From contig CAWGLD010000005.1 of NCBI GenBank assembly GCA_963823335.1, positions 64,001-128,000 of the forward strand: a stretch of DNA of 64,000 nucleotides, read 5' to 3'. The notes beneath the pieces are model-generated. The model was not told the DNA's origin, did no database searches, and worked only from the letters and a program-made list of their open reading frames with translations. Made by a program: the position numbers and the translations under genes. How positions within the stretch are numbered: position 1 is the stretch's first letter; each line of letters begins with the position of its first letter. This stretch comes from an uncultured delta proteobacterium (GTDB lineage Bacteria > Desulfobacterota > Desulfobacteria > Desulfobacterales > B30-G6). Shown in pieces: positions 25,245 to 35,507 of the stretch.

Positions 25245-25331
25245 GCCGAAGTGGCGGAACTGGTAGACGCGCTAGGTTCAGGGTCTAGTAAGGGTTTCCT
25301 TGTGGGAGTTCAAATCTCCCCTTCGGCACCA
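25245..25331 (+). tRNA. tRNA-Leu(CAG)
   Basis: GCCGAAG acceptor pairs with CTTCGGC+ACCA; D loop GGAACTGGTAGAC; anticodon arm CTAGG-TTCAGGG-TCTAG; long variable arm; GTTCAAAT T loop. Confidence 0.97.
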
Positions 25332-25472
25332 CTTTTTTTCTTAACTTCCTGTTTTATATTAATATCCTAAGCCTAAAAATACGCCAAAAATGGCGTTTTT
25401 CCGAATAATGGGGCAAAGCCACTACACTGGTACATAATGAAACTTGTACCGGAGATAGAGAGGAGCTGGCTT

Positions 25473-25835
25473 ATGACCACACGGTCTTCCCCTTCGTACC
25501 TTTTTCAATCCCCGTATTCCTATTATTTCAGAATCCGGATCCCAGATGATTTGCGGTTGCACTTCGCTGGCAAAACTGAAATAAAACGATCACTCCAAAC
25601 CGGATATCTGTCTGATGCAAAGTATAAGGCTCGGTTGCTTGCTGGTCAAGTTCAAAGGCTGTTCAGATACTTGCACGGAAAGGAAGCTAATGCCATGACC
25701 GCAAAAAAATACTCCAAACTTACAGACGATCTGCTGAACGACATTGTGTCTATAACTTTCTTGGACGGGTTATTAGGATTTGTAACCTGTGGCATATACA
25801 CACCGCATACGGCTAAAGTTTATTGCACCGATTAA
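25473..25835 (+). pseudogene. truncated integrase N-terminus (DUF6538-like); no catalytic tyrosine-recombinase domain
   Basis: YYFRIRIPDDLR..F.GKTEIKRSLQT....A...A motif; GAGGAG RBS; resemblance appears to end near 25745. Confidence 0.75.
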
Positions 25836-26101: not shown

Positions 26102-27187
26102 ATGAGCGAAGAAATGTATCTAAAGTTAGCCAAAGTGCTTGACACCCTCCCAAACGGCTTTCCTACAACAGAATCAGGCGTTGAAATCAAATTATTGAAA
26201 AAGATATTTAGACCCGAAGATACAGAGCTTTTCTGCGACTTGAAACTTAGTTTTGAGACTGCGGAGCAGATTTCAGAGAGAACAGGAAGACCGATAGATG
26301 GCTTGGAAGATCACTTGATTGAAATGTGGCGGAGAGGGCAACTTTTTGGAGCTGATATTGGAGGAATAATGGTTTTCAAAATGGTGCCTTGGGCATTCGG
26401 AATTTATGAATTTCAACTGCCCCACCTGGACCGTGAAATGGCAGAAATGTGTGAGGAGTACATGAAAGTTTTTGGTGAACAGTTTTTCAAAAATAAGCCG
26501 CAACTCATGCAAGTCGTCCCAGTTGAGAAAGAAATTTCTGCCAAACAGCAAACTCTTCATTACGAGCAGGTTTCCAATATAATTGAAAATAGCCAGTCAT
26601 TTGCTGTTTTTGACTGCATATGTAAAAAAGAAAAACACCTATTGGACAAAGGCTGCGATAAGCCATTAGAAATTTGTACTGCATATGCTCCTATCCCAGG
26701 CGTTTTCGATGAAGTACCGCATTACCGTTCAATGTCAAAAGATGAGGCATATGCCGTCTTGGACAAAGCAGAAAAGGCCGCTTTAGTCCATCTAACATGG
26801 AATATGGAAAGTGGTCATTTTTTTATCTGTAATTGTTGTGGCTGTTGCTGCCATGTTTTGACCTCTATCAATGATTTGGGGATAAATGCTTCCGACGTAA
26901 TTAATTCAAACTATTATGCTGAAATCAACTCTGATTCATGTATCGTCTGCAATACCTGCATTGATGAACGCTGCCAGGTAGTGGCAATTGAAGAGGGAGA
27001 TGATGCGAACCATATCATCCGTGAAAAATGTATTGGGTGCGGGCTTTGTATATCAACTTGTCCGACAGAATCCATAAAGCTGATACGAAAAGATCCCGAG
27101 GAAATAATTACGCCACCAAAAGATGAGATGGAATGGTTTGAAAAACGTGCAAACCAAGTAGGAGTAGATATCAGTAAGTATACATGA
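26102..27187 (+). CDS. 4Fe-4S binding protein (wHTH-like N-terminus, C-terminal ferredoxin domain)
   Basis: AAGGAGG RBS; C.C, ICNCCGCCC, CIVCNTC...C, CIGCGLC...CP. Confidence 0.9.
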   Translation: MSEEMYLKLAKVLDTLPNGFPTTESGVEIKLLKKIFRPEDTELFCDLKLSFETAEQISERTGRPIDGLEDHLIEMWRRGQLFGADIGGIMVFKMVPWAFGIYEFQLPHLDREMAEMCEEYMKVFGEQFFKNKPQLMQVVPVEKEISAKQQTLHYEQVSNIIENSQSFAVFDCICKKEKHLLDKGCDKPLEICTAYAPIPGVFDEVPHYRSMSKDEAYAVLDKAEKAALVHLTWNMESGHFFICNCCGCCCHVLTSINDLGINASDVINSNYYAEINSDSCIVCNTCIDERCQVVAIEEGDDANHIIREKCIGCGLCISTCPTESIKLIRKDPEEIITPPKDEMEWFEKRANQVGVDISKYT

Positions 27188-27228
27188 TTAATTATCCCAT
27201 GCTTATCAGCCGTGAGAAACGGTGATGC

Positions 27229-27395
27229 CTCCAACGAAAATGTAGATATCAGGCTCCTAATATTTTACCGGTGTGCGAAAATTATCACAACAGGCCAAAT
27301 CTTGCATTCATAAGCCCTGCCGTGATACCTTGATGATGACCAGATGGTATCGTTAATAATACCATAATTCAAAAACGCACGATGTTCTCCATGTA
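27229..27395 (+). repeat. island intergenic module, copy 1 (interrupted at its 3' end by the intron)
   Basis: Shares CCAAC, GTAGATATCA, ACCGGTGTGCGAAAAT, ATCACAAC, ATCTTGCA, ATGGTATCG and CTCCAT blocks with the 29777 and 33542 copies. Confidence 0.9.
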
Positions 27396-28064
27396 GTGTG
27401 CCAAGAGCGCACTTTTAAATATAGTGTGTGCAACTGTGTAAAAGATGAGGGTTGTTTGGCCCCTCGGAGCCGGCTTGCAGGAGCAGGCTTCAAACCGCCT
27501 AAAGCTGCGTTGGTTAAGAGCCAGGGTGGTGAGCGTTTAGGAAAAGTCACGGCATAGGATCGTGGCAGGTACGACTCAGAGAGATGAGCGCAAGCGAACC
27601 ATTCGATGAAGCGTCGAAAGATCATGGACGAGGTCAAAACTGAGCTGATATATGGGGTTCAGGATGAGCTTAGGGGGAGCCTGCGTATTGCCTAAGTGGC
27701 CTCCGGCGTTAAGGTGGCATGAATCTGAGTTAGGCTTTTGCATGGAACTTGGGAACCTGTCGTCTCGATGTTAAGGGAGAAATTCAAGTGGAGATCCCAC
27801 AAGAATGAGAGTACCGATGCGAGGCACAGGGGCGGATCATCCCGTATTAGTGTTGAAGTCTCTGTAATGGGGATGGAGTGAAGGGGATGAGCCAGCTCGC
27901 AGCAAGTGAAGGTCAACCAGGAAACTGGGAGGAACCGGATTTATTTCTGCGTAGGCTTGAGACCGTGAGGTTTCAAGAGAATGGCTGGCAGGAGCGGTAT
28001 GACGGGAGACTGTCACGTACCGTTCTGAGAGGGCCTGGGGGTGAAATTCCCCCGGGCACTCGAC
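27396..28064 (+). ncRNA. ORF-less group II intron (IIB-type, resembling bacterial class D)
   Basis: 5' GTGTG; domain V GAGCGGTATGACGGGAGACTGTCACGTACCGTTC; domain VI GGCCTGGGGGTGAAATTCCCCCGGGCACTCGAC ending AC; 669 nt with no RT ORF. Confidence 0.9.
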
Positions 28065-28260
28065 TCGGTATTGTTGAAATCGTCGAACCTTGACCAATCC
28101 GCTCAAATCATGTACGTATCTTACATTGCACTCAAATCACACTTGGGCTGAATCTTCAAACTGAACCTGATCTATCCTCATTCTCGACCTGTTCTTACCT
28201 TTCAAAGATGTATCATCTTTTTTTATCAATTGCTTTATTACAGACTCAGGAGGACAGATC

Positions 28261-29742
28261 ATGACGCTTTTCAAGAGGGTTCTTCAGCTAAGTGCAATCA
28301 TGTTTCTCATCAGTGCCCTCTTTTCCTGTGGAAAGTGTTCTGTCAAATCTCCCCATGACATCGACCTTGTCCATTTCAAATCCGCTACTGAGTTGACAAG
28401 CTCCATTCGGCGCGGCGAAATCACTTCCCTTGATCTTCTCAACCTCTACCTCGACCGCATAGAGCGTTATAATAATGATATCAATGCAGTCGTTGCCCTG
28501 GATATAACTGCAGCCCGGGCGCGAGCAGCGGAAGCAGACAAAGCTCTCGTGGAGGGCAAAGACTGGGGGCCACTCCATGGCCTCCCAATGACGGTTAAGG
28601 ATGTATTTGAAGTGGTTGGCATGCCCACAACATCGGGTGACCCAATGCTCAAAGGTTACATCCCAGATCGTAATGCAATAGCGGTACAACGTCTAATCGA
28701 TGCAGGTGCAATAATATTTGGCAAAACGAACGTTCCATTCCATGCATCGGATATTCAAACTTACAACGAAATCTATGGTACGACTAATAATCCCTGGGAT
28801 TTGTCCAGAACTCCAGGCGGTTCATCAGGCGGCTCGGCCGCGGCTCTCGCTGCCGGATTTACTCCTCTCGAACTGGGGAGCGACATAGGGGGGTCAGTCC
28901 GTAATCCAGCCCACTACACAGGGGTTTTCGGACATAAACCTACTTTTGGAATTGTTCCGAGATATGGACATATACCACCAATGCCCGGCCAGGTTCCCCC
29001 ACACGTAATGCCTGCGATTCCGCTTTTCGTAGTCGGACCTCTTGCTCGTAGTGCCGATGACTTAGAATTAGCTATAGAAGTATTGACGACTCCAAATAGG
29101 ATGGACAAGAGCGCTAACAGACCAGAGCTGTTGCCACCGCGAAGGCAGCAATTCAAAGATTATCGTGTTGCTGTGTGGCTCACGGATCCCTATCCAGCAG
29201 CCGAAATCGATGATGAAGTCTTGGCAGCACTCAAGATGACCGTAGAAAAACTGCGTGGTGCCGGTCTTGACATAGACGAGGAAGCGCGGCCTAACATCGA
29301 TTTGTTAATAGACGGATCACTTTGGTATGAAATATACAGTCAGATGATGATCGGCTCATTACCGCTGGATGAGGTGCTTGTCGAAAGACAGAAAAAGCAA
29401 CAAGCAATGTGGGCTGAACTATTTGAACGTTATGATGTACTGCTCGCTCCTATATCGCCAACTGTTGCCTTTCCGCATGACCATAAGGGGACGTTAACGA
29501 CCCGCAGTTTGGAGATCAATGGCCAGCAGAAACCCATGCTAAACAACATGACTTGGGCTTATATGGCAGTTGTATCAGGATTGCCGGCAACTGTTGCACC
29601 CGTTGGGCTGAGCGAATCAGGTCTTCCAGTAGGTATTCAGATTATTGGTGCCAGATTCGAGGATAGGACAACCATAGCTTTTGCTAAAGCTTTATCTGAG
29701 CTAATTGGTGGATTCAAACCTCCACCAGGCTTTGATAATTAG
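28261..29742 (+). CDS. amidase-signature family amidase with a lipoprotein-like signal
   Basis: GPLHGLP.TVKD, GKTN, PGGSSGGSAAA, GSDIGGSVRNPA; LFSC lipobox-like; AGGAGG RBS. Confidence 0.93.
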   Translation: MTLFKRVLQLSAIMFLISALFSCGKCSVKSPHDIDLVHFKSATELTSSIRRGEITSLDLLNLYLDRIERYNNDINAVVALDITAARARAAEADKALVEGKDWGPLHGLPMTVKDVFEVVGMPTTSGDPMLKGYIPDRNAIAVQRLIDAGAIIFGKTNVPFHASDIQTYNEIYGTTNNPWDLSRTPGGSSGGSAAALAAGFTPLELGSDIGGSVRNPAHYTGVFGHKPTFGIVPRYGHIPPMPGQVPPHVMPAIPLFVVGPLARSADDLELAIEVLTTPNRMDKSANRPELLPPRRQQFKDYRVAVWLTDPYPAAEIDDEVLAALKMTVEKLRGAGLDIDEEARPNIDLLIDGSLWYEIYSQMMIGSLPLDEVLVERQKKQQAMWAELFERYDVLLAPISPTVAFPHDHKGTLTTRSLEINGQQKPMLNNMTWAYMAVVSGLPATVAPVGLSESGLPVGIQIIGARFEDRTTIAFAKALSELIGGFKPPPGFDN

Positions 29743-29776
29743 CACAAATGCACTTTTATTTAGCTAATAGATGAAA

Positions 29777-29938
29777 CCAACAAAACCGTAGATATCAGAC
29801 CCCTAAAAATTACCGGTGTGCGAAAATAATCACAACCGACCGAATCTTGCATTCATAGACCCTAGTGTGGTACCGTGGGGATGACCAAATGGTATCGGCA
29901 ATATTGTCTATAATTCCAGTTGGTAAGATACTCTCCAT
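29777..29938 (+). repeat. island intergenic module, copy 2
   Basis: Same conserved blocks as the 27229 and 33542 copies. Confidence 0.9.
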
Positions 29939-30068
29939 CAATCACCATTCTGAGATTCAGGTTTATTGCCTAATCTACAGATTAGAACTGGTTTAATTAT
30001 TACGCTCGTAATATATCCAGAACCACACAATAACTTTTCACGTGTTAAAGAATAAAGGAGGTTTCCAT

Positions 30069-30359
30069 ATGAGTGCATATATTGTTGTTGACACCAAGAT
30101 AAACAATCCAGAGATATATGAAGAGTATAAAAAACTTGCGAAGCCCATCGCTGAAAAATACGGAGGTGTTTATCGAGTTAGAGGTGGAGCGATGGATGTT
30201 AGGCAAACTGAGCTTTGGACGCCCACCAGGATCGTAATTATCGAATTTCCTGATGTTAAAAGCGCGCAGGCATTTGCAGACTCAGATGAATATGCTCCGG
30301 TAAAATCTATGCGTTTAAAAAATGCCGAATGCACGTTATTTATCGTGGATGGAGGGTAA
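30069..30359 (+). CDS. DUF1330 domain protein
   Basis: MSAYIVVD...PE.YEEY....P..EKYGG....GG, RIVIIEFP...A..F..S.EY; AAGGAGG RBS. Confidence 0.88.
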   Translation: MSAYIVVDTKINNPEIYEEYKKLAKPIAEKYGGVYRVRGGAMDVRQTELWTPTRIVIIEFPDVKSAQAFADSDEYAPVKSMRLKNAECTLFIVDGG

Positions 30360-30600
30360 CCGACAACGACTCTACCAAGATGTATACATCGCACGGTACG
30401 GTCCAGGGTTATAACAGCCAGGCGATCGTCGACTCCAAACACCAGGTGATCGTTCATGGTGAGGCTCTTGGGAGGGGCCCGGACAACGAAAATCTACCAC
30501 CGGTATTGGATGGAGCCAAAGAGAATCTTCAAAGCATCGGCAAGCCCCCGGATTATTTTGAAGACAAGATCCTAACGGCTGATTCAAGCTATCACAGCAT
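30356..30600 (+). pseudogene. internal fragment of an IS1182-family-like DDE transposase
   Basis: TDNDSTKMYTSHGTVQGYNSQAIVDSKHQVIV ... LTADSSYHS; both ends missing. Confidence 0.75.
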
Positions 30601-30864
30601 AGCGGAGCGTGCAAGGTGTGTCGAATGTAGAGTCTTAGTGATTGGATTAGCCAACAGGTTATTGCGTTGGTGATGGTGATGGTGCCATGCAATAAATCAG
30701 GCTTATGCAGGCGGTCGGAAATGGCTCTAAGTAAGAGTTAATTACCACCGGACTGACGATGAGCAGGGCAATAAACAGATGACCCGGTTATGAATCAGAA
30801 AGCGGCAAAGAGCGGTGACCCAACCGTCTATCTTTTCGAAAAACTCACAAGAGAGAAAGTAACC

Positions 30865-32031
30865 ATGACTCCACAGAAACGAGTAAGTACGACTGTACCA
30901 TTGAACTGGAAAGAAGTGTGGTTCACCAACTGCCCCATGGTATCTGCCAACAACGTCGACCAGGAACTGGGATGGTGCCGTGAAGAGTACAAGAAGATCG
31001 GCGTCGAGTACGCCTACTTCCGCCATGCACCGGAGAACAACTGGTACCCGCACTACATCCACAATCTCGACAATCTCATCCGATTCGGCGGTTTGTATCC
31101 CCCGATCCATGTTCACGCCGACTACCGTCGAACCAAACTGCTCGGGGCCACCTGGGTCTACGAAGGTGGTGGTTTGATCGTGCGCGCCCGCGACAGAATC
31201 TTCCGCGTGAAGGATCTGAAAGGGAAGAAGATCGGCATCTCCAAGAGCCTGAACACGATCAAGAACGACTGGTGGCGGATTCAGGAACACATGGCCATCG
31301 AAAATATCCTGATGCTGAACGACATGACCATGGACGATATAGAGCTCGTAGAGTTCCCCTACCCGGATGACTGGTATGACAAACCCGAGATGCTGACCCC
31401 GCCGATGAACAACCCCTCTGAGCTGTGGATGCGTCGCGACCACAAGCACGATCTGGCTTTCCGCCCGCTGGAAACGGCGCTCCTGGATGGCACCGTCGAT
31501 GCCATCTACACCCAGAGCAAGGTCTTCCAGCACCTCCAGGAGGCAACAGGTAAGATCAAGATGATTGTGGACCTGGCCAAGCTACCGGACTGGACCTTGC
31601 AGGTTGCCAACACCCCCGCCGTCATCACCTGTACCGAGGTGATGGCCAAGGAGCACCCCGAGCTGGTGATCGCCTACATGAAGGCCATGATCAAGGTCGG
31701 CCGTTGGGCCAACGAGCACAAACGCGCTGCTGCAGCGATTCTCAACCGGCAGACTTTCTACCTGGATGCCGAGGACACATACCAAGGCATCAAGCACGTC
31801 GATATGGTCCCAAGCCTGAGTGCTCAGAATTTGGAATGCATCAATATCGGCAAAGATTTCATGTTCAGCCACGGCTACATCAAGAACGACTTCAATGTGA
31901 ACGAATGGGCGGCCCCGGAGTTTCTGGAGAAGGCGGCGATGGAAGTGCTCAAGGAGGAATGGGAAAGAAGAAGCTGGAGCAAGCTTCCTCAAGGAGGTGG
32001 GCTCGAGGTAGATGGCGCACGGCTCGGGTAG
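30865..32031 (+). CDS. DszB-like / sulfonate-type substrate-binding-fold protein
   Basis: WFTNCP motif resembling the DszB YSNCP catalytic Cys, DLKGKKIG, AL.DG.VDA, HPELV..Y, W..PEFL; no signal peptide; GC-rich codons. Confidence 0.7.
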   Translation: MTPQKRVSTTVPLNWKEVWFTNCPMVSANNVDQELGWCREEYKKIGVEYAYFRHAPENNWYPHYIHNLDNLIRFGGLYPPIHVHADYRRTKLLGATWVYEGGGLIVRARDRIFRVKDLKGKKIGISKSLNTIKNDWWRIQEHMAIENILMLNDMTMDDIELVEFPYPDDWYDKPEMLTPPMNNPSELWMRRDHKHDLAFRPLETALLDGTVDAIYTQSKVFQHLQEATGKIKMIVDLAKLPDWTLQVANTPAVITCTEVMAKEHPELVIAYMKAMIKVGRWANEHKRAAAAILNRQTFYLDAEDTYQGIKHVDMVPSLSAQNLECINIGKDFMFSHGYIKNDFNVNEWAAPEFLEKAAMEVLKEEWERRSWSKLPQGGGLEVDGARLG

Positions 32032-32133
32032 TCTGGACAAAACGTAACTGAAAACCTGCGGCGCTTTTTTTCGGATTTGGTCATCGGATGCGAAAAAGTG
32101 CCGCTCTCACAACTCAAGTCAAAGGAGAATGCC

Positions 32134-33402
32134 ATGAAGAAATATGGCCTCAGTGTGTTCATTTCAATGGTGTTCACAATTCTGGTTGTCACGTCGGCCC
32201 ACGCCGGCGGGATGTGGTTAGACGGTCAGGCAATCCCCGACATGGGGGTGGGGGGGGCAGGCCGCCAGGCGGCGGGGCTGGATGCTTCCACCGCCAGCGG
32301 CAACCCGGCCGCCATGACGCGCCTGGACCAATCCCAGGTGGCAGGCGGTATCATGGGCATCTATCCCGATGTCCAGTTCGATGTCCAAAATTCCACTTTC
32401 GGGGGCGGTGACGGCGGCAACGCCGGCAATTTCACCCCCGTACCGACGCTGTATTACGTGCACAGTCTGAGTTCGGATTTAAAACTGGGACTGGGGGTGG
32501 GGTCTTATTTTGGTCTGGGCCTCGATTACGGTAATGACTGGGCCGGCAGGTATTACGTTCAAAGCGCCAGCTATGAGACGGTGGCAATCAACCCCACCAT
32601 CGCCTATCGGATCGCTCCGTGGCTGTCGGTTGGCGGCGGCGCCAACATCGTCAGAGGTGAGATGAGCGCAAGGGTGGCTGTCAACACACTCCTGGAACCG
32701 GGCGACGGGCGACTCAAGTACGATGCCACGGACGTGGGCTACGGGTTCAACCTCGGGGCACTGTTCGAATTTAGTTCCCGGACCCGCCTGGGCATCACCT
32801 ATATCTCGGAAGTCGACCTGGACTTCAAGGACGACCTGCGCTTCAAAAACCTGAATGGCACGTTACTGGGGGCTGCTCTGGAGGCAAACGGGCTGATGGA
32901 TTCCCGGTTGAAAATCGACTCCACCATTCCCAGTCAAGTGGCTTTGGGGGTCTATCACGCCTTCACCGACAAGCTCGCCATGGTGGGCTCGGTCAACTGG
33001 CAGGACTGGAGTAAATTTGGCGTGCCCGAAATCGCAGTGGCAGACAGCGACACGACCACGGCAGACCTGGACTACCAGGACACCTATCATGTGGGTCTGG
33101 GGGTCTATTACCGCGTGGAAGATTCCTGGCTGCTGATGGCCGGCTTCGGCTATGACAGCTCACCTATATCCAGCAGCAAAGATCGTTCTCCCACGCTGCC
33201 TTTTGACGAAACCTACAGCTATTCCGGCGGTGTGCAGTACGACTGGACCGGTAATTTTTCAATAGGTGCCGCCTACACGTTGATAGCTTCGGGCAAAGGC
33301 GAGGTGAACAAAACCGGCGGGCCGCTTCAGAGGGACCTCAAAGGGGAGTACGACACTTACTTCATTCACGCTTTTAACCTGAACTTTGTTTACCGGTTCT
33401 AA
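32134..33402 (+). CDS. OmpP1/FadL/TodX family outer-membrane channel
   Basis: Signal peptide AHA-GG, DAST...NPAAMT, FGL..DY..W.GRY, INPT.AY, C-terminal YRF. Confidence 0.88.
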   Translation: MKKYGLSVFISMVFTILVVTSAHAGGMWLDGQAIPDMGVGGAGRQAAGLDASTASGNPAAMTRLDQSQVAGGIMGIYPDVQFDVQNSTFGGGDGGNAGNFTPVPTLYYVHSLSSDLKLGLGVGSYFGLGLDYGNDWAGRYYVQSASYETVAINPTIAYRIAPWLSVGGGANIVRGEMSARVAVNTLLEPGDGRLKYDATDVGYGFNLGALFEFSSRTRLGITYISEVDLDFKDDLRFKNLNGTLLGAALEANGLMDSRLKIDSTIPSQVALGVYHAFTDKLAMVGSVNWQDWSKFGVPEIAVADSDTTTADLDYQDTYHVGLGVYYRVEDSWLLMAGFGYDSSPISSSKDRSPTLPFDETYSYSGGVQYDWTGNFSIGAAYTLIASGKGEVNKTGGPLQRDLKGEYDTYFIHAFNLNFVYRF

Positions 33403-33541
33403 GATGGGCATGATGTTATTGATAAGGGAAAAAAAGTATTTATCTGATTTTGTCCCTGACGATGGCGACCGGTCTGTTAACCATAGCCTGGGGGAAGAAA
33501 CGGATAAAAACAACAAGGAGCGGTTTCAAATAGTTGAATGA

Positions 33542-33711
33542 CTCCAACAAAACGGTAGATATCAACCCCCTAAGATTTCACCGGTGTGCGAAAATAATCA
33601 CAACTGGCCATATCTTGCACTCATAAGACCCTATGTGGTACCGTGGGCATAACCAGATGGTATCGGCAATAATTTTGATGAGGCTGATAACTGGACTTGT
33701 CTCCATGTATC
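33542..33711 (+). repeat. island intergenic module, copy 3 (intron-free target TCTCCATGTA|TC)
   Basis: Same conserved blocks as copies 1 and 2. Confidence 0.9.
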
Positions 33712-33716
33712 TGTGA

Positions 33717-33774
33717 TCCCAACCTGTCGCTGGTGGCGGACTCGGTCCCCTCGCCGCGAAGCTTGTCGTTAAAT
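33717..33774 (+). other. attC-like recombination site (58 bp)
   Basis: TCCCAAC ... GTTAAAT ends; imperfect inner palindrome GCTGGTGGCGGA / TCGCCGCGAAGC; ORF starts 17 nt later. Confidence 0.55.
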
Positions 33775-33791: not shown

Positions 33792-34268
33792 ATGGAAAAA
33801 GAATCAAATGATAGTGCGGCTATTCGTATACCGCCGCCGCTATATTTCTTTGCATGTTTGGGAATTGGTCTTTTGTTGGAATACCTTTTCCCCATTCATC
33901 TCGCCAGTATTTCATTAATCCCTCGGGTTGTCGTCGGCGGAACATTTATACTTATATCCATCTATTTTGCATTGAGTGGATTTGTTGCGCTGATCAAGAA
34001 TAGGACTCCATTTGACACTGCAAAATCTACCAATAAGATAGTGCAAGAGGGTCCATATCGTTTTTCTCGAAATCCATTGTACCTATCACTACTGCTTCTA
34101 TTATTTGGGTTTTCAGTTTTACTTGTGTCTCTCTGGCTACTCTTTACACTACCGATTCTCTATATTCTTTTCTTATTCAAAGCTGTGAAACCTGAAGAAA
34201 GCTATCTGTCACAAAAATTTGGAGAAGAATACTTAGATTATTCGTCAAAAGTAAAAAGATGGATTTAA
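33792..34268 (+). CDS. isoprenylcysteine carboxylmethyltransferase/PEMT family membrane protein
   Basis: RIPPP, GPYRFSRNPLY, PEE.YL..KFGEEY..Y..KVKRWI. Confidence 0.9.
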   Translation: MEKESNDSAAIRIPPPLYFFACLGIGLLLEYLFPIHLASISLIPRVVVGGTFILISIYFALSGFVALIKNRTPFDTAKSTNKIVQEGPYRFSRNPLYLSLLLLLFGFSVLLVSLWLLFTLPILYILFLFKAVKPEESYLSQKFGEEYLDYSSKVKRWI

Positions 34269-34381: not shown

Positions 34382-34462
34382 CTCCAACACATTGGTAGAT
34401 TTCAGATTCCAAAATACTAATGATTTTGGTTTTATTTCAAAACCTATCGACATTGTTGGTTA
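34382..34462 (+). other. second attC-like imperfect hairpin
   Basis: CTCCAACA..GGTAGATTT pairs imperfectly with AAACCTATCG..TGTTGG; inner CCAAAAT/ATTTTGG stem; lies between two cassette-sized ORFs. Confidence 0.4.
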
Positions 34463-34489: not shown

Positions 34490-35071
34490 GTGATGGAAAT
34501 GAAGAGTTCTGTGCTCATTATTTTGAGCCACCAAATTGTCTTTCAAGGCATGTTCTTTGCAAAAAACATCTTGCTTCGTCAAAGATTGGGGATGCAGGTT
34601 AGAGGGAGAAATCGAGAAGCCAGCTTATCGATTGTGTTCTTAGGTTTTTTCATCACTGTTTCTTTTCTATTTAGTTCGTTCAACGTCTCATTTGGAACCG
34701 TAGGTCTAATATCGAAAAGTGTTGCAACGGCCACAGCAATAGTACTCCTTGCTGTGAATATTTTGATAGGAGCAGCATCATTGATAGGATTGAAGGATTC
34801 ATGGCGTGTGGGCATATTGGAGGATCAACAAACTGATCTGATAGAAGGAGGTATATATCATTTCTCAAGGAATCCCTACTTTCTCTCCTATCTGATTATG
34901 CTTGCTGCTTACACAGTTCTCCTACAGAATATCATACTCCTTATTCTATCGTTATTGGGATTTGTTTTCATCCATAGGATGGTGTTGAAAGAAGAACAAC
35001 ATCTCACAGAGCAACACGGGGATATTTATCGCCTATATCTGAAAAAGGTCCCAAGATACTTCATTATTTGA
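34490..35071 (+). CDS. isoprenylcysteine carboxylmethyltransferase/PEMT family membrane protein
   Basis: SWRVGI, GIY.FSRNPYF, EE.HL...HG..Y..Y...VPRY. Confidence 0.88.
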   Translation: MMEMKSSVLIILSHQIVFQGMFFAKNILLRQRLGMQVRGRNREASLSIVFLGFFITVSFLFSSFNVSFGTVGLISKSVATATAIVLLAVNILIGAASLIGLKDSWRVGILEDQQTDLIEGGIYHFSRNPYFLSYLIMLAAYTVLLQNIILLILSLLGFVFIHRMVLKEEQHLTEQHGDIYRLYLKKVPRYFII

Positions 35072-35431
35072 ATTTTCTTTTGACTTCATGCCCACGAAAT
35101 ATGGGATCTGAGAACCGTTGATCCAACTCATCAACGGTGAAAAGGGTTTCTGAAAACTTGTGATAGCTGCACGTGGCGTCTTTGATACTTGAGGATGTAC
35201 GGGATTATTAGGGGTAGCGCTATCATCTGGGGTTGATATTTTGTCTGAAATTTGGGATACAACAGTCCTAAGCACTAACACACATTCGGCACCTAACCAG
35301 ATGGAGTTGATTTAAATTATGCTGTGTTTACAACACATTGGAAGGGTAGGGTAGCCTCAAAATTCCGTGTCTCCCCTTCGGCACCACTTTTTTATTAACT
35401 ATCTGATCTAACTTCTAATATAAAACCTCAA

Positions 35432-35507
35432 TCCAAACCGGATATTTGTCTGATGCAAAGTATAAGGCTTGGTAACTTGCTGGTCAAGTCCAGGGGCTGT
35501 TCAGATA
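35432..35507 (+). pseudogene. second DUF6538-type integrase remnant after the att repeat
   Basis: 76 bp closely matching 25594-25669 (TCCAAACCGGATAT.TGTCTGATGCAAAGTATAAGGCT...GTTCAGATA) with an in-frame TAA. Confidence 0.8.

Follow-up and report, generated by a model that had tools for sequence, protein, structure and literature searches.

A repeat module with a predicted promoter separates the genes of cassette-like arrays in uncultured Desulfobacterales and can enclose a Xer-like recombinase gene

Results and discussion

A repeat module in three copies

We analyzed a 64-kb stretch of DNA from an uncultured delta proteobacterium of the order Desulfobacterales (assembly GCA_963823335.1, contig CAWGLD010000005.1, positions 64,001 to 128,000 of the forward strand), in the following referred to as the window. 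Our subject is a repeat module of ~170 bp which occurs there three times and which is separated by protein-coding genes, the cargo. A preliminary description of the same DNA had listed these copies together with their common orientation and the order of their motifs, and all of this was recovered as stated. A combination of repeat search, alignment and sequence reading confirmed three same-strand copies within the window. The repeat search delimited them at 27225–27360, 29770–29905 and 33538–33673, with 66% and 81% ungapped identity of copies 2 and 3 to copy 1. The modules and their cargo are arranged as follows (window coordinates).

26102–27187, + strand: cargo before copy 1, 4Fe-4S cluster protein of 361 aa
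27229–27395, + strand: module copy 1, with 5′ core CTCCAAC (27229–27235), palindrome (27272–27289), −35 box TTGCAT (27302–27307), TG (27323–27324), −10 box TACCTT (27326–27331) and 3′ core TCTCCAT (27386–27392)
28261–29742, + strand: cargo between copies 1 and 2, amidase of 493 aa
29775–29943, + strand: module copy 2, with variant 5′ core AACCAAC (29775–29781), palindrome (29817–29834), −35 box TTGCAT (29847–29852), TG (29868–29869), −10 box TACCGT (29871–29876), 3′ core TCTCCAT (29932–29938) and ATC (29941–29943)
30042–33402, + strand: cargo between copies 2 and 3, DUF1330 gene (30042–30359), NMT1/THI5-like binding protein (30790–32031) and FadL/TodX outer-membrane channel (32077–33402)
33542–33711, + strand: module copy 3, with 5′ core CTCCAAC (33542–33548), palindrome (33585–33602), −35 box TTGCAC (33615–33620), TG (33636–33637), −10 box TACCGT (33639–33644), 3′ core TCTCCAT (33700–33706) and ATC (33709–33711)
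33792–34268 and 34490–35071, + strand: cargo following copy 3, two methyltransferase genes of the PEMT/ICMT family with the isolated core at 34382 between them
34382–34405, + strand: isolated 5′-type core CTCCAAC (34382–34388) and start of a head, without a module behind it, between the two PEMT/ICMT-family genes

Five parts make up each module: the 5′ core CTCCAAC, a palindrome of 18 bp, a promoter-like arrangement facing the next gene (−35 box, 18 nt, TGn and −10 box), a tail and an invariant 3′ core TCTCCAT. In the window the motifs follow one another as CTCCAAC (AACCAAC in copy 2), GTAGATATCA, the palindrome TGTGCGAAAAT(T/A)ATCACA, the promoter motifs TTGCA(T/C), 18 nt, TG-n-TACC(T/G)T, and finally GGTATC and TCTCCAT. 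Copy 1 is interrupted after GTA (27393–27395) by a group II intron. In the profile alignment conservation sets in abruptly a few bases 5′ of CTCCAAC and ends at TCTCCATnTATC. The best-conserved blocks are, in order, the 5′ core with GTAGATATCA, a ~27-nt block around the palindrome (TGTGCGAAAATAATCACA), TTGCAT, TGnTACCGT, ATGGTATCGG, GATAACTGGACTT and the invariant TCTCCAT.

Both cores are flanked by arm motifs of the GATA(A/T)C type. By eye, the consensus of the 3′ site can be divided into 9-bp inverted arms around 8 bp (GATAACTGG / ACTTnTCT / CCATnTATC). The 5′ site can be divided by eye into GATATCTCC / AACAAAAC / GGTAGATATC, with a weak arm on the cargo side. The head motif that had been noted at 34382 proved to be an isolated core with the start of a head; the remainder of the palindrome at 34382–34460 is unique in the genome.

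Module arrays in the source genome

A profile hidden Markov model (HMM) was built from the three window copies and searched with nhmmer (E ≤ 1e-3). In the window's own 4.37-Mb assembly (G000, with contigs C1, C4 and so on) this search, which the preliminary description had suggested, gave 84 matches, far beyond chance, and 55 of them are full length. The 84 matches are located on C1 (30), C4 (19), C7 (19), C9 (9), C5 (5), C10 (1) and C11 (1), and the copies are ~75–85% identical to each other. Some matches comprise only the head (HMM positions up to 75–76) or only the tail (from ~107–125).

The copies cluster in runs of a single orientation: C7:199783–235836 (19 matches, all +), C1:85952–117306 (+), C4:145165–181425 (11 of 12 matches −) and C9:11189–47421 (+). 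Between neighbouring same-strand matches there are 60 intervals with a median length of 1.75 kb (range 0.49–8.8 kb), and 35 of them hold a single open reading frame (ORF). ORFs of at least 80 aa in these intervals lie on the strand of the module in 102 cases vs 21 on the opposite strand (83% co-oriented, 102/123). Both the repeat family as such and its arrangement in arrays are beyond doubt.

The Pfam families of the cargo are mutually unrelated. They include URO-D, SUI1, GDSL lipase, pentapeptide, MFS, DnaJ, Ni-SOD, YceI, acyltransferase, a serine-hydrolase fold, thioesterase and methyltransferases, together with many ORFs without a family and some genes of insertion sequences (IS) and group II introns. 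The arrays are located in islands of low GC content (41.6% for the C7 array vs 48.8% for the genome), and two of them, the one in the window (tRNA gene at 25245–25328) and the one on C7, start beside a tRNA gene.

Just 3′ of many 3′ cores there are short leaders of few types which are common to different cargo genes, for example at G000 C7:213589–213650 and C1:1763250–1763320 and in loci L134, L143, L147, L168 and L213. One leader type carries CTGATATTTGGTTTTC with an arm-like GATAT motif, and another carries TTTGAAG.CTTATTAGCG.

Shuffled cargo and breaks of identity at the cores

For a comparison of neighbours we combined G000 with 20 array loci of two congeners, G004 and G007, which yielded 94 full modules, and considered all pairs. 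Many cargo segments of G004 and G007 recur in G000 at 85–97% identity, at other places. The NMT1-like gene of the window, FadL and the module, for instance, occur together in G004 too, amid different neighbours. One flank was common (≥75% identity) in 28 module pairs and both flanks in none of them. Whether the flanking genes are shuffled had been posed as a check by the preliminary description; they are not fixed, with no module pair sharing both flanks across genomes.

At the 5′ edge, three cross-species pairs share upstream cargo that is 90–97% identical up to the 5′ core. The identity stops after CTCC, CTCCTA or CTCCAACAA and amounts to 64–80% inside the module. For copy 3 of the window, the cargo orthologue in G004 shows 96% identity as far as CTCCAACAA, compared with 71–77% for the module beyond. 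At the 3′ edge, cargo and its downstream module were recently duplicated together within the genome in two cases, one in G000 (C7:213415/226817) and one in G007 (L073), with 94–100% identity of the duplicates. Both duplications end inside TCTCCATG, and the modules upstream of the duplicates resemble each other no more than modules do in general. At the upstream ends of duplicated units, and likewise at one first-in-array cargo in G004, there is a bare TCTCCA-type core and no module. Overall, CTCCA was found within 20 nt in both genomes at 10 of 76 refined homology ends vs 0.85% of random positions. One cargo gene in G007 has no upstream module.

Logan contigs from other sediment samples carry the PEMT gene of the window at ~96% identity. 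In two of these contigs the match stops at 33717, beside the 3′ core of copy 3, and stops or ends at 34388, at the isolated core, which we regard as a weak hint of breaks at core edges. Apparent joints among modules in Logan contigs were rejected as evidence for excision; these joints have foreign letters between their two sides and derive from paralogous copies.

Recombinase-bearing copies of the module

One module of G000 contains a gene (C1:163777–164845). In this copy the head (HMM positions 14–75) is followed by a tyrosine recombinase gene (PF00589) on the opposite strand and by the tail (positions 120–187), so that head and tail are ~940 bp apart. The open frame of the recombinase comprises 277 codons. 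Its best NCBIfam match is XerA-like with 87.7 bits, which is below the cut-off, and the closest solved structure is XerA (PDB-entry 4a8e, E = 3e-11). The recombinase-bearing copy is the first module of the array C1:147873–164845, and the next match upstream is 600 kb off. Other arrays of G000 are devoid of a recombinase; a truncated second recombinase copy follows a head at C9:36157–36758. The preliminary description was right in that the window lacks a cognate recombinase. Its suggestion that the recombinase had been deleted is not supported, since a candidate gene exists elsewhere in the genome, inside one module; the copy abutting a recombinase gene for which it had proposed to look is this C1 module.

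The same order of head, antisense recombinase and tail is found in G001 (98% identical protein), where the contig ends inside the head, and in G015 from another family (84%), where a further partial module lies upstream of the recombinase copy. Despite the 98% protein identity the first cargo beside the recombinase differs: it is an MttB homologue in G000 and another gene in G001, and this latter gene sits between two ordinary modules in G000.

A metagenome set comprised 80 loci with a recombinase homologue, in which eligible contigs were counted per side and heads and tails were identified with the three-copy HMM. Where the recombinase is at least 80% identical, 14 of 24 eligible contigs have a head behind the gene and 10 of 18 have a tail before it. 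At 70–80% identity the head is adjacent in 2 of 19 and the tail in 5 of 19 contigs, and at 60–70% neither was found by the HMM (0/28 and 0/24). A regular expression for core plus arm gave 12/23 heads and 8/17 tails in the class of at least 80% (3 and 0 in wrong-strand controls), 8/17 and 6/19 at 70–80% (controls 0 and 0) and none at 60–70% (0/27 and 0/24, controls likewise none).

The DNA beyond the cores (CTCCAAC on one side, TCTC(C/A)AT..ATC on the other) varies from case to case in 20 tail-side and 18 head-side junctions; 17 and 16 of these, respectively, come from metagenome contigs and the rest from G000, G001 and G015. The same flank recurs in two contig pairs (L144 with L172 and L144 with L146). 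Because the DNA beyond the cores is varied, the recombinase element is a discrete unit with the two cores of the module. Judged from its sequence, the module is a gene-less miniature of this ~1.1-kb element.

At about codon 20 the recombinase gene carries a run of nine adenines (A9; G000 C1:~163955–163965; loci L115–L118, L120, L122, L123 and L134–L213). In 71 classifiable metagenome loci, A9 was out of frame in 39 and scored in frame in 5; A8 was found in 7 (3 in frame), A7 in 3 and A10 in 2, while 12 loci lack a run and have an intact frame and 3 are ambiguous. Naturally in-frame alleles with A8 or without a run are represented by loci such as L140, L155, L170 and L173. The tract is kept in many assemblies and at protein identities between 62% and 98%. 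It has the appearance of a site for programmed slippage or phase variation and not that of a pseudogene or an assembly error.

The MttB (trimethylamine methyltransferase) homologue, the first cargo after the recombinase copy, is located at G000 C1:162034–163521 (L108:2034–3521, minus strand). It has a single in-frame TAG at codon 328 in the context GG*GD, which we take to be roughly the pyrrolysine position of MttB.

In G037, from a module-negative family, a ~90-bp stretch including the TCTCCATGTAT motif lies upstream of a 64%-identical recombinase homologue (C17:22142–22412). Three further copies of this stretch are found on three other contigs (loci L130–L133), and there are no arrays. This suggests that the G037 repeats are diverged sister systems.

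Distribution across genomes

The module is present in 14 of the 41 genomes searched, G000 included. Within this family of uncultured Desulfobacterales it was found in 12 of the 14 other genomes, and in further families of the order in 1 of 26. The profile search gave no module match in the congeners G008 (94% complete) and G009 (93%). According to their titles, the public records in which a 24-nt head motif occurs are metagenome-assembled genomes (MAGs) of uncultured Desulfobacterales, 'delta proteobacterium' or Thermodesulfobacteriota, and one 2.6-kb contig with this motif is binned as Zixiibacteriota. The motif was not found in viral contigs, and neither the module nor the recombinase was found in PLSDB plasmids.

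Predicted promoter and palindrome

In the standard module the promoter motif reads TTGCAT, 18 nt, TACCGT, preceded by TG-n. Bases 1, 2 and 6 of the −10 box are best conserved, and the conservation profile fits TTGcAT ... TGnTAC..T. A second module type with at least six copies in G000 has an unrelated middle, in which the head is followed by an intrinsic terminator and then by TTGACA, 18 nt and TAGACT. The motif of the recombinase-bearing copy is TTGACA, 18 nt, TATTCT. In all three versions of the middle the −10 box ends 7–8 nt before CCAGATGG of the tail. Since the position of the −35 and −10 boxes is kept across three unrelated middles, it is the best evidence for an outward promoter. This predicted promoter would be of the sigma-70 type and would point across the 3′ core into the next cargo gene.

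Copies of the second type are located at C10:28070–28138, C11:7359–7438, C4:546723–546784, C1:110098–110344, C1:161590–161824 and C4:176411–177047. They have a TGGCAC-containing stretch; some have a divergent tail, and an IS630-like remnant is inserted in one. A sigma-54 reading of TGGCAC in these variant modules was discarded, because by eye the GC element is one base out of register.

The palindrome had been described as CRP/FNR- or Rex-like in the preliminary description. With up to 3 mismatches in 20 nt, all 64 matches in the genome are located inside modules and none outside, and five permuted controls gave no match. The distance between palindrome and promoter ranges from ~20 nt to ~1 kb among the module types. 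This confinement and the variable distance point to a module-specific site rather than to part of a wider regulon, and an assignment to a CRP/FNR/Rex regulon is not supported. The palindrome can be laid out as 11-6-11. As a point of exchange it was rejected: none of the four clear breakpoints from a mosaic scan of the 94 modules is located there, and the presumed exchange maps to the CTCCA cores.

Proposed role of the modules

We propose that the modules are the junctions of an integron-like cassette system, i.e. recombination sites plus promoter, which are served by the embedded Xer-like recombinase. We consider this the probable explanation and hold it with moderate confidence. The portable unit of recombination site and promoter, as envisaged by the preliminary description, is thereby favored, and the comparison adds to it the same-orientation arrays of unrelated genes, the shuffled neighbours, the identity breaks at both module edges and the kept position of the promoter. 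Not supported are the analogy to attC sites, the CRP/FNR/Rex reading of the palindrome and the deleted recombinase.

Based on these data we infer that the recombinase acts at the cores, that the promoter fires and that the palindrome has a role in the process, according to the following mechanism. The Xer-like recombinase would exchange DNA at the CTCCAAC and TCTCCAT cores. In this way single genes or small groups of genes, with or without a neighbouring module, could be excised, duplicated and re-inserted, and repeated exchange would build up one-directional arrays. Exchange between like cores of neighbouring junctions would lead to the excision of cargo together with one module. If both kinds of core were used in the course of time, the cargo would lose each of its two modules, a pattern that agrees with the old cargo orthologues. 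The predicted promoter of a junction would drive the next cargo gene, and each junction would bring its own promoter. The palindrome is a putative protein-binding site and could be either an accessory recombination site or an activator site.

A number of observations weigh against this proposal. No close recombinase (E ≤ 1e-20) was found in the module-bearing genomes G005, G012, G013 and G014, and G004 has only a partial match of 63%; these genomes are MAGs of 81–99% completeness. In most recombinase alleles the start codon and the main ORF are in different frames at the A9 run, and the enzyme may thus be inactive or rare. Conservation of the cargo-side arms is weak at both cores, and a generic promoter scan omits the promoter of the standard module, which matches 6 of 12 consensus positions. 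The 66 remaining homology ends of the 76 are not at a core; many of these off-core ends represent ordinary divergence inside multi-gene cargo, IS elements or introns. In Logan contigs of four sediment runs, which are short and confused by paralogous modules, neither a circle nor an empty site was found. The mosaic scan gave no more than its four clear internal breakpoints, so in-module exchange is rare or undetected. Finally, 21 interval ORFs of at least 80 aa run against the module strand.

Alternative explanations

The modules could also be non-autonomous copies similar to miniature inverted-repeat transposable elements (MITEs), inserted between the genes of existing islands, with the cargo being shuffled by ordinary horizontal gene transfer, deletion and homologous recombination. 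This would explain why both ends of the module are common to a recombinase-encoding element that is discrete in many contexts, and why the same short core is found at both edges, as for an element integrated by a tyrosine recombinase. The G007 cargo gene without an upstream module fits as well. However, no empty site was observed: in none of the 28 flank-sharing pairs are both flanks conserved with and without the module. The order of the cargo is wholly different between congeners despite 85–97% identity of the cargo itself, and the duplicated units are made up of cargo plus module and end at a core. Moreover, strict alternation of module and cargo with 83% co-orientation is not expected from random insertion. 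In view of these points we consider a MITE-like origin of the pattern unlikely.

Alternatively, the module could be the promoter and operator region of a large accessory regulon without any role in recombination, kept alike by selection and gene conversion. The conserved positions of the −35 and −10 boxes, the strongly conserved palindrome upstream of them and the co-orientation of the downstream genes are in line with such a regulon. An identity of ~80% over 170 bp, including the DNA between the motifs, exceeds what a regulon would need, though, and the lack of palindrome matches outside the modules (0/64) and the promoter distance of ~20 nt to ~1 kb do not fit. The recombinase gene embedded in one copy and the identity breaks at the module edges also argue against a regulon, which we regard as improbable.

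It is very improbable that the module encodes a structured RNA (a leader, riboswitch or small RNA) or a protein. The inverted repeats of the tail retain pairing potential (TATC/GATA 86% and CCAG/CTGG 68% Watson-Crick), and the G-T-tolerant hairpin of the preliminary description can indeed be drawn. In the 94 copies, however, 78% of the cells of this hairpin are Watson-Crick and 13% G-T, with only 2 cells changed on both sides, and compensatory changes are almost absent. RNAalifold gave no consensus structure for 55 copies (−1.2 and 0.0 kcal/mol for the two strands); sequence conservation is thus all that speaks for the hairpin. In Rfam 15 at gathering thresholds the window has intron and tRNA matches only, and at E ≤ 1 there was nothing on the modules of three module-bearing loci; an Rfam family that would account for the module, as considered in the preliminary description, was thus not found. 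A minus-strand frame in copy 3 starts with ATGGAGA and runs for 43 codons (by eye). This protein-coding reading was rejected: stop codons interrupt the frame in copy 1 and in one tail variant (by eye), and there is no three-base periodicity.

An identification of the modules as attC sites of a classical integron or of a cluster of attC sites lacking integron-integrases (CALIN), hinted at by the R″-box analogy of the preliminary description, would suit the array layout, the CTCCAAC core, which we take to resemble the RYYYAAC box, and the group II intron at the site, which presumably resembles IIC-attC introns, but it is the least credible of all, with no IntI at the cut-off (TIGR02249; best genome score 88.5 bits vs 265, embedded recombinase 28.3 bits), no consensus hairpin on either strand, a 3′ end of TCTCCAT instead of GTTRRRY and a length of ~170 bp that lies above the usual range of attC sites.

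Further features of the window locus

The array of the window is accompanied by three other features.

25245–25835, + strand: island boundary, tRNA gene (25245–25328) followed by a truncated integrase N-terminus (DUF6538, ORF 25437–25835)
27396–28095 (3′ end approximate), + strand: ORF-less group II intron directly 3′ of the 3′ core of copy 1, TCTCCATGTA then GTGTG
~30359–30673, between the DUF1330 and NMT1-like genes: transposase remnant (DDE transposase gene), no Pfam match at E ≤ 0.001

The 3′ end of the tRNA gene (25315–25338) is repeated with 24/24 identical positions at 35370–35393. This repeat and the truncated integrase after the tRNA gene place the array in a tRNA-linked island, which is decayed and possibly arranged in tandem. 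An 80-nt piece of the integrase remnant recurs (90%) ~10 kb downstream, in the repeat region 35370–35507. A 245-bp piece of the transposase remnant at 30359–30673 is 95% identical to a stretch in G005.

The intron was assigned from Rfam matches to RF01999 at 27447–27570 (106.7 bits) and RF00029 at 27990–28069 (53.5 bits). Related introns at G007 locus L077:12332–12617 and G000 C7:204658–204817 are located directly 3′ of a 5′-type core (CTCCAA; CTTCCAA on the opposite strand). In G004, three copies of module plus intron hold an extra insert of ~2 kb at the equivalent of window position 27541/27542. These introns appear to use the module cores as homing sites.

Comparison with known systems

The arrays resemble integrons and CALINs in that long, one-directional series of unrelated, mostly single-gene cassettes are split by a family-specific repeat. 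As in integrons, the cassettes are shuffled between related genomes; here the order differs and the arrays are co-oriented. A tyrosine recombinase gene at the head of the array, transcribed away from it and with an outward promoter beside it, is likewise common to integrons and to the C1 array of G000, where the promoter is predicted. In contrast to integrons, the recombinase of ~277 aa is Xer-like and scores far under the IntI cut-off, and its gene is located inside a copy of the repeat. The module of ~170 bp has its own predicted promoter and lacks a single-strand hairpin signature, and it would have two exchange points, one per edge, instead of one.

With MITEs and their parent IS elements the modules share the relation between a short, gene-less multi-copy unit and a longer, rare, enzyme-encoding element that has both ends in common with it. 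Here, however, the enzyme is a tyrosine recombinase and not a DDE transposase, the module ends are direct CTCCA cores and not terminal inverted repeats with target duplication, and the copies form ordered arrays in alternation with cargo.

Xer-site systems include the pdif modules of Acinetobacter plasmids and the cer/psi-type sites with accessory sequences. Common to these and to the modules are the implied Xer-family chemistry and gene modules bounded by short recombination sites. In cer and psi a core is joined to ~150 bp of adjacent protein-binding DNA, for which the module has a putative counterpart. Unlike in these systems, the element encodes its own recombinase and the sites are not dif-like; the modules are directly repeated in chromosomal arrays with predicted promoters, and no exchange was mapped at the dif-like palindrome.

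Promoter-stem-loop (PeSL) units have been proposed to shuffle genes in T4-like phages by homologous recombination without a dedicated recombinase. They too are repeated intergenic promoter units between unrelated small genes that are thought to drive modular exchange, whereas the modules described here break at fixed cores and include a recombinase-bearing copy. In the literature covered by our searches we came across neither a report of such arrays from Desulfobacterales nor one of Xer-type cassette arrays with this layout, which is not proof of absence.

Implications

To our knowledge, no platform other than the integron has been well described that uses site-specific recombination to store and reshuffle single-gene cassettes, and integrons require folded attC sites as well as integrases of a single clade. 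We tentatively suggest that the modules may represent an independent second invention of the integron principle, although we are less than convinced of it. A Xer-like recombinase would be located inside its own double-stranded ~170-bp site and would be throttled by the A9 run, each junction would provide two cores and a promoter, and the system would be the main engine of accessory-genome turnover in a marine-sediment family of Desulfobacterales. Given their small size and simplicity, the recombinase and its sites lend themselves to testing in a laboratory host.

If the proposed cassette system is real, cassette stores could be built from another recombinase lineage and from ordinary double-stranded sites that carry promoters. 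Genome annotators would gain a new marker of such islands. For the organisms themselves, it would explain the turnover of dozens of accessory genes in abundant, uncultured relatives of sulfate reducers in sediments.

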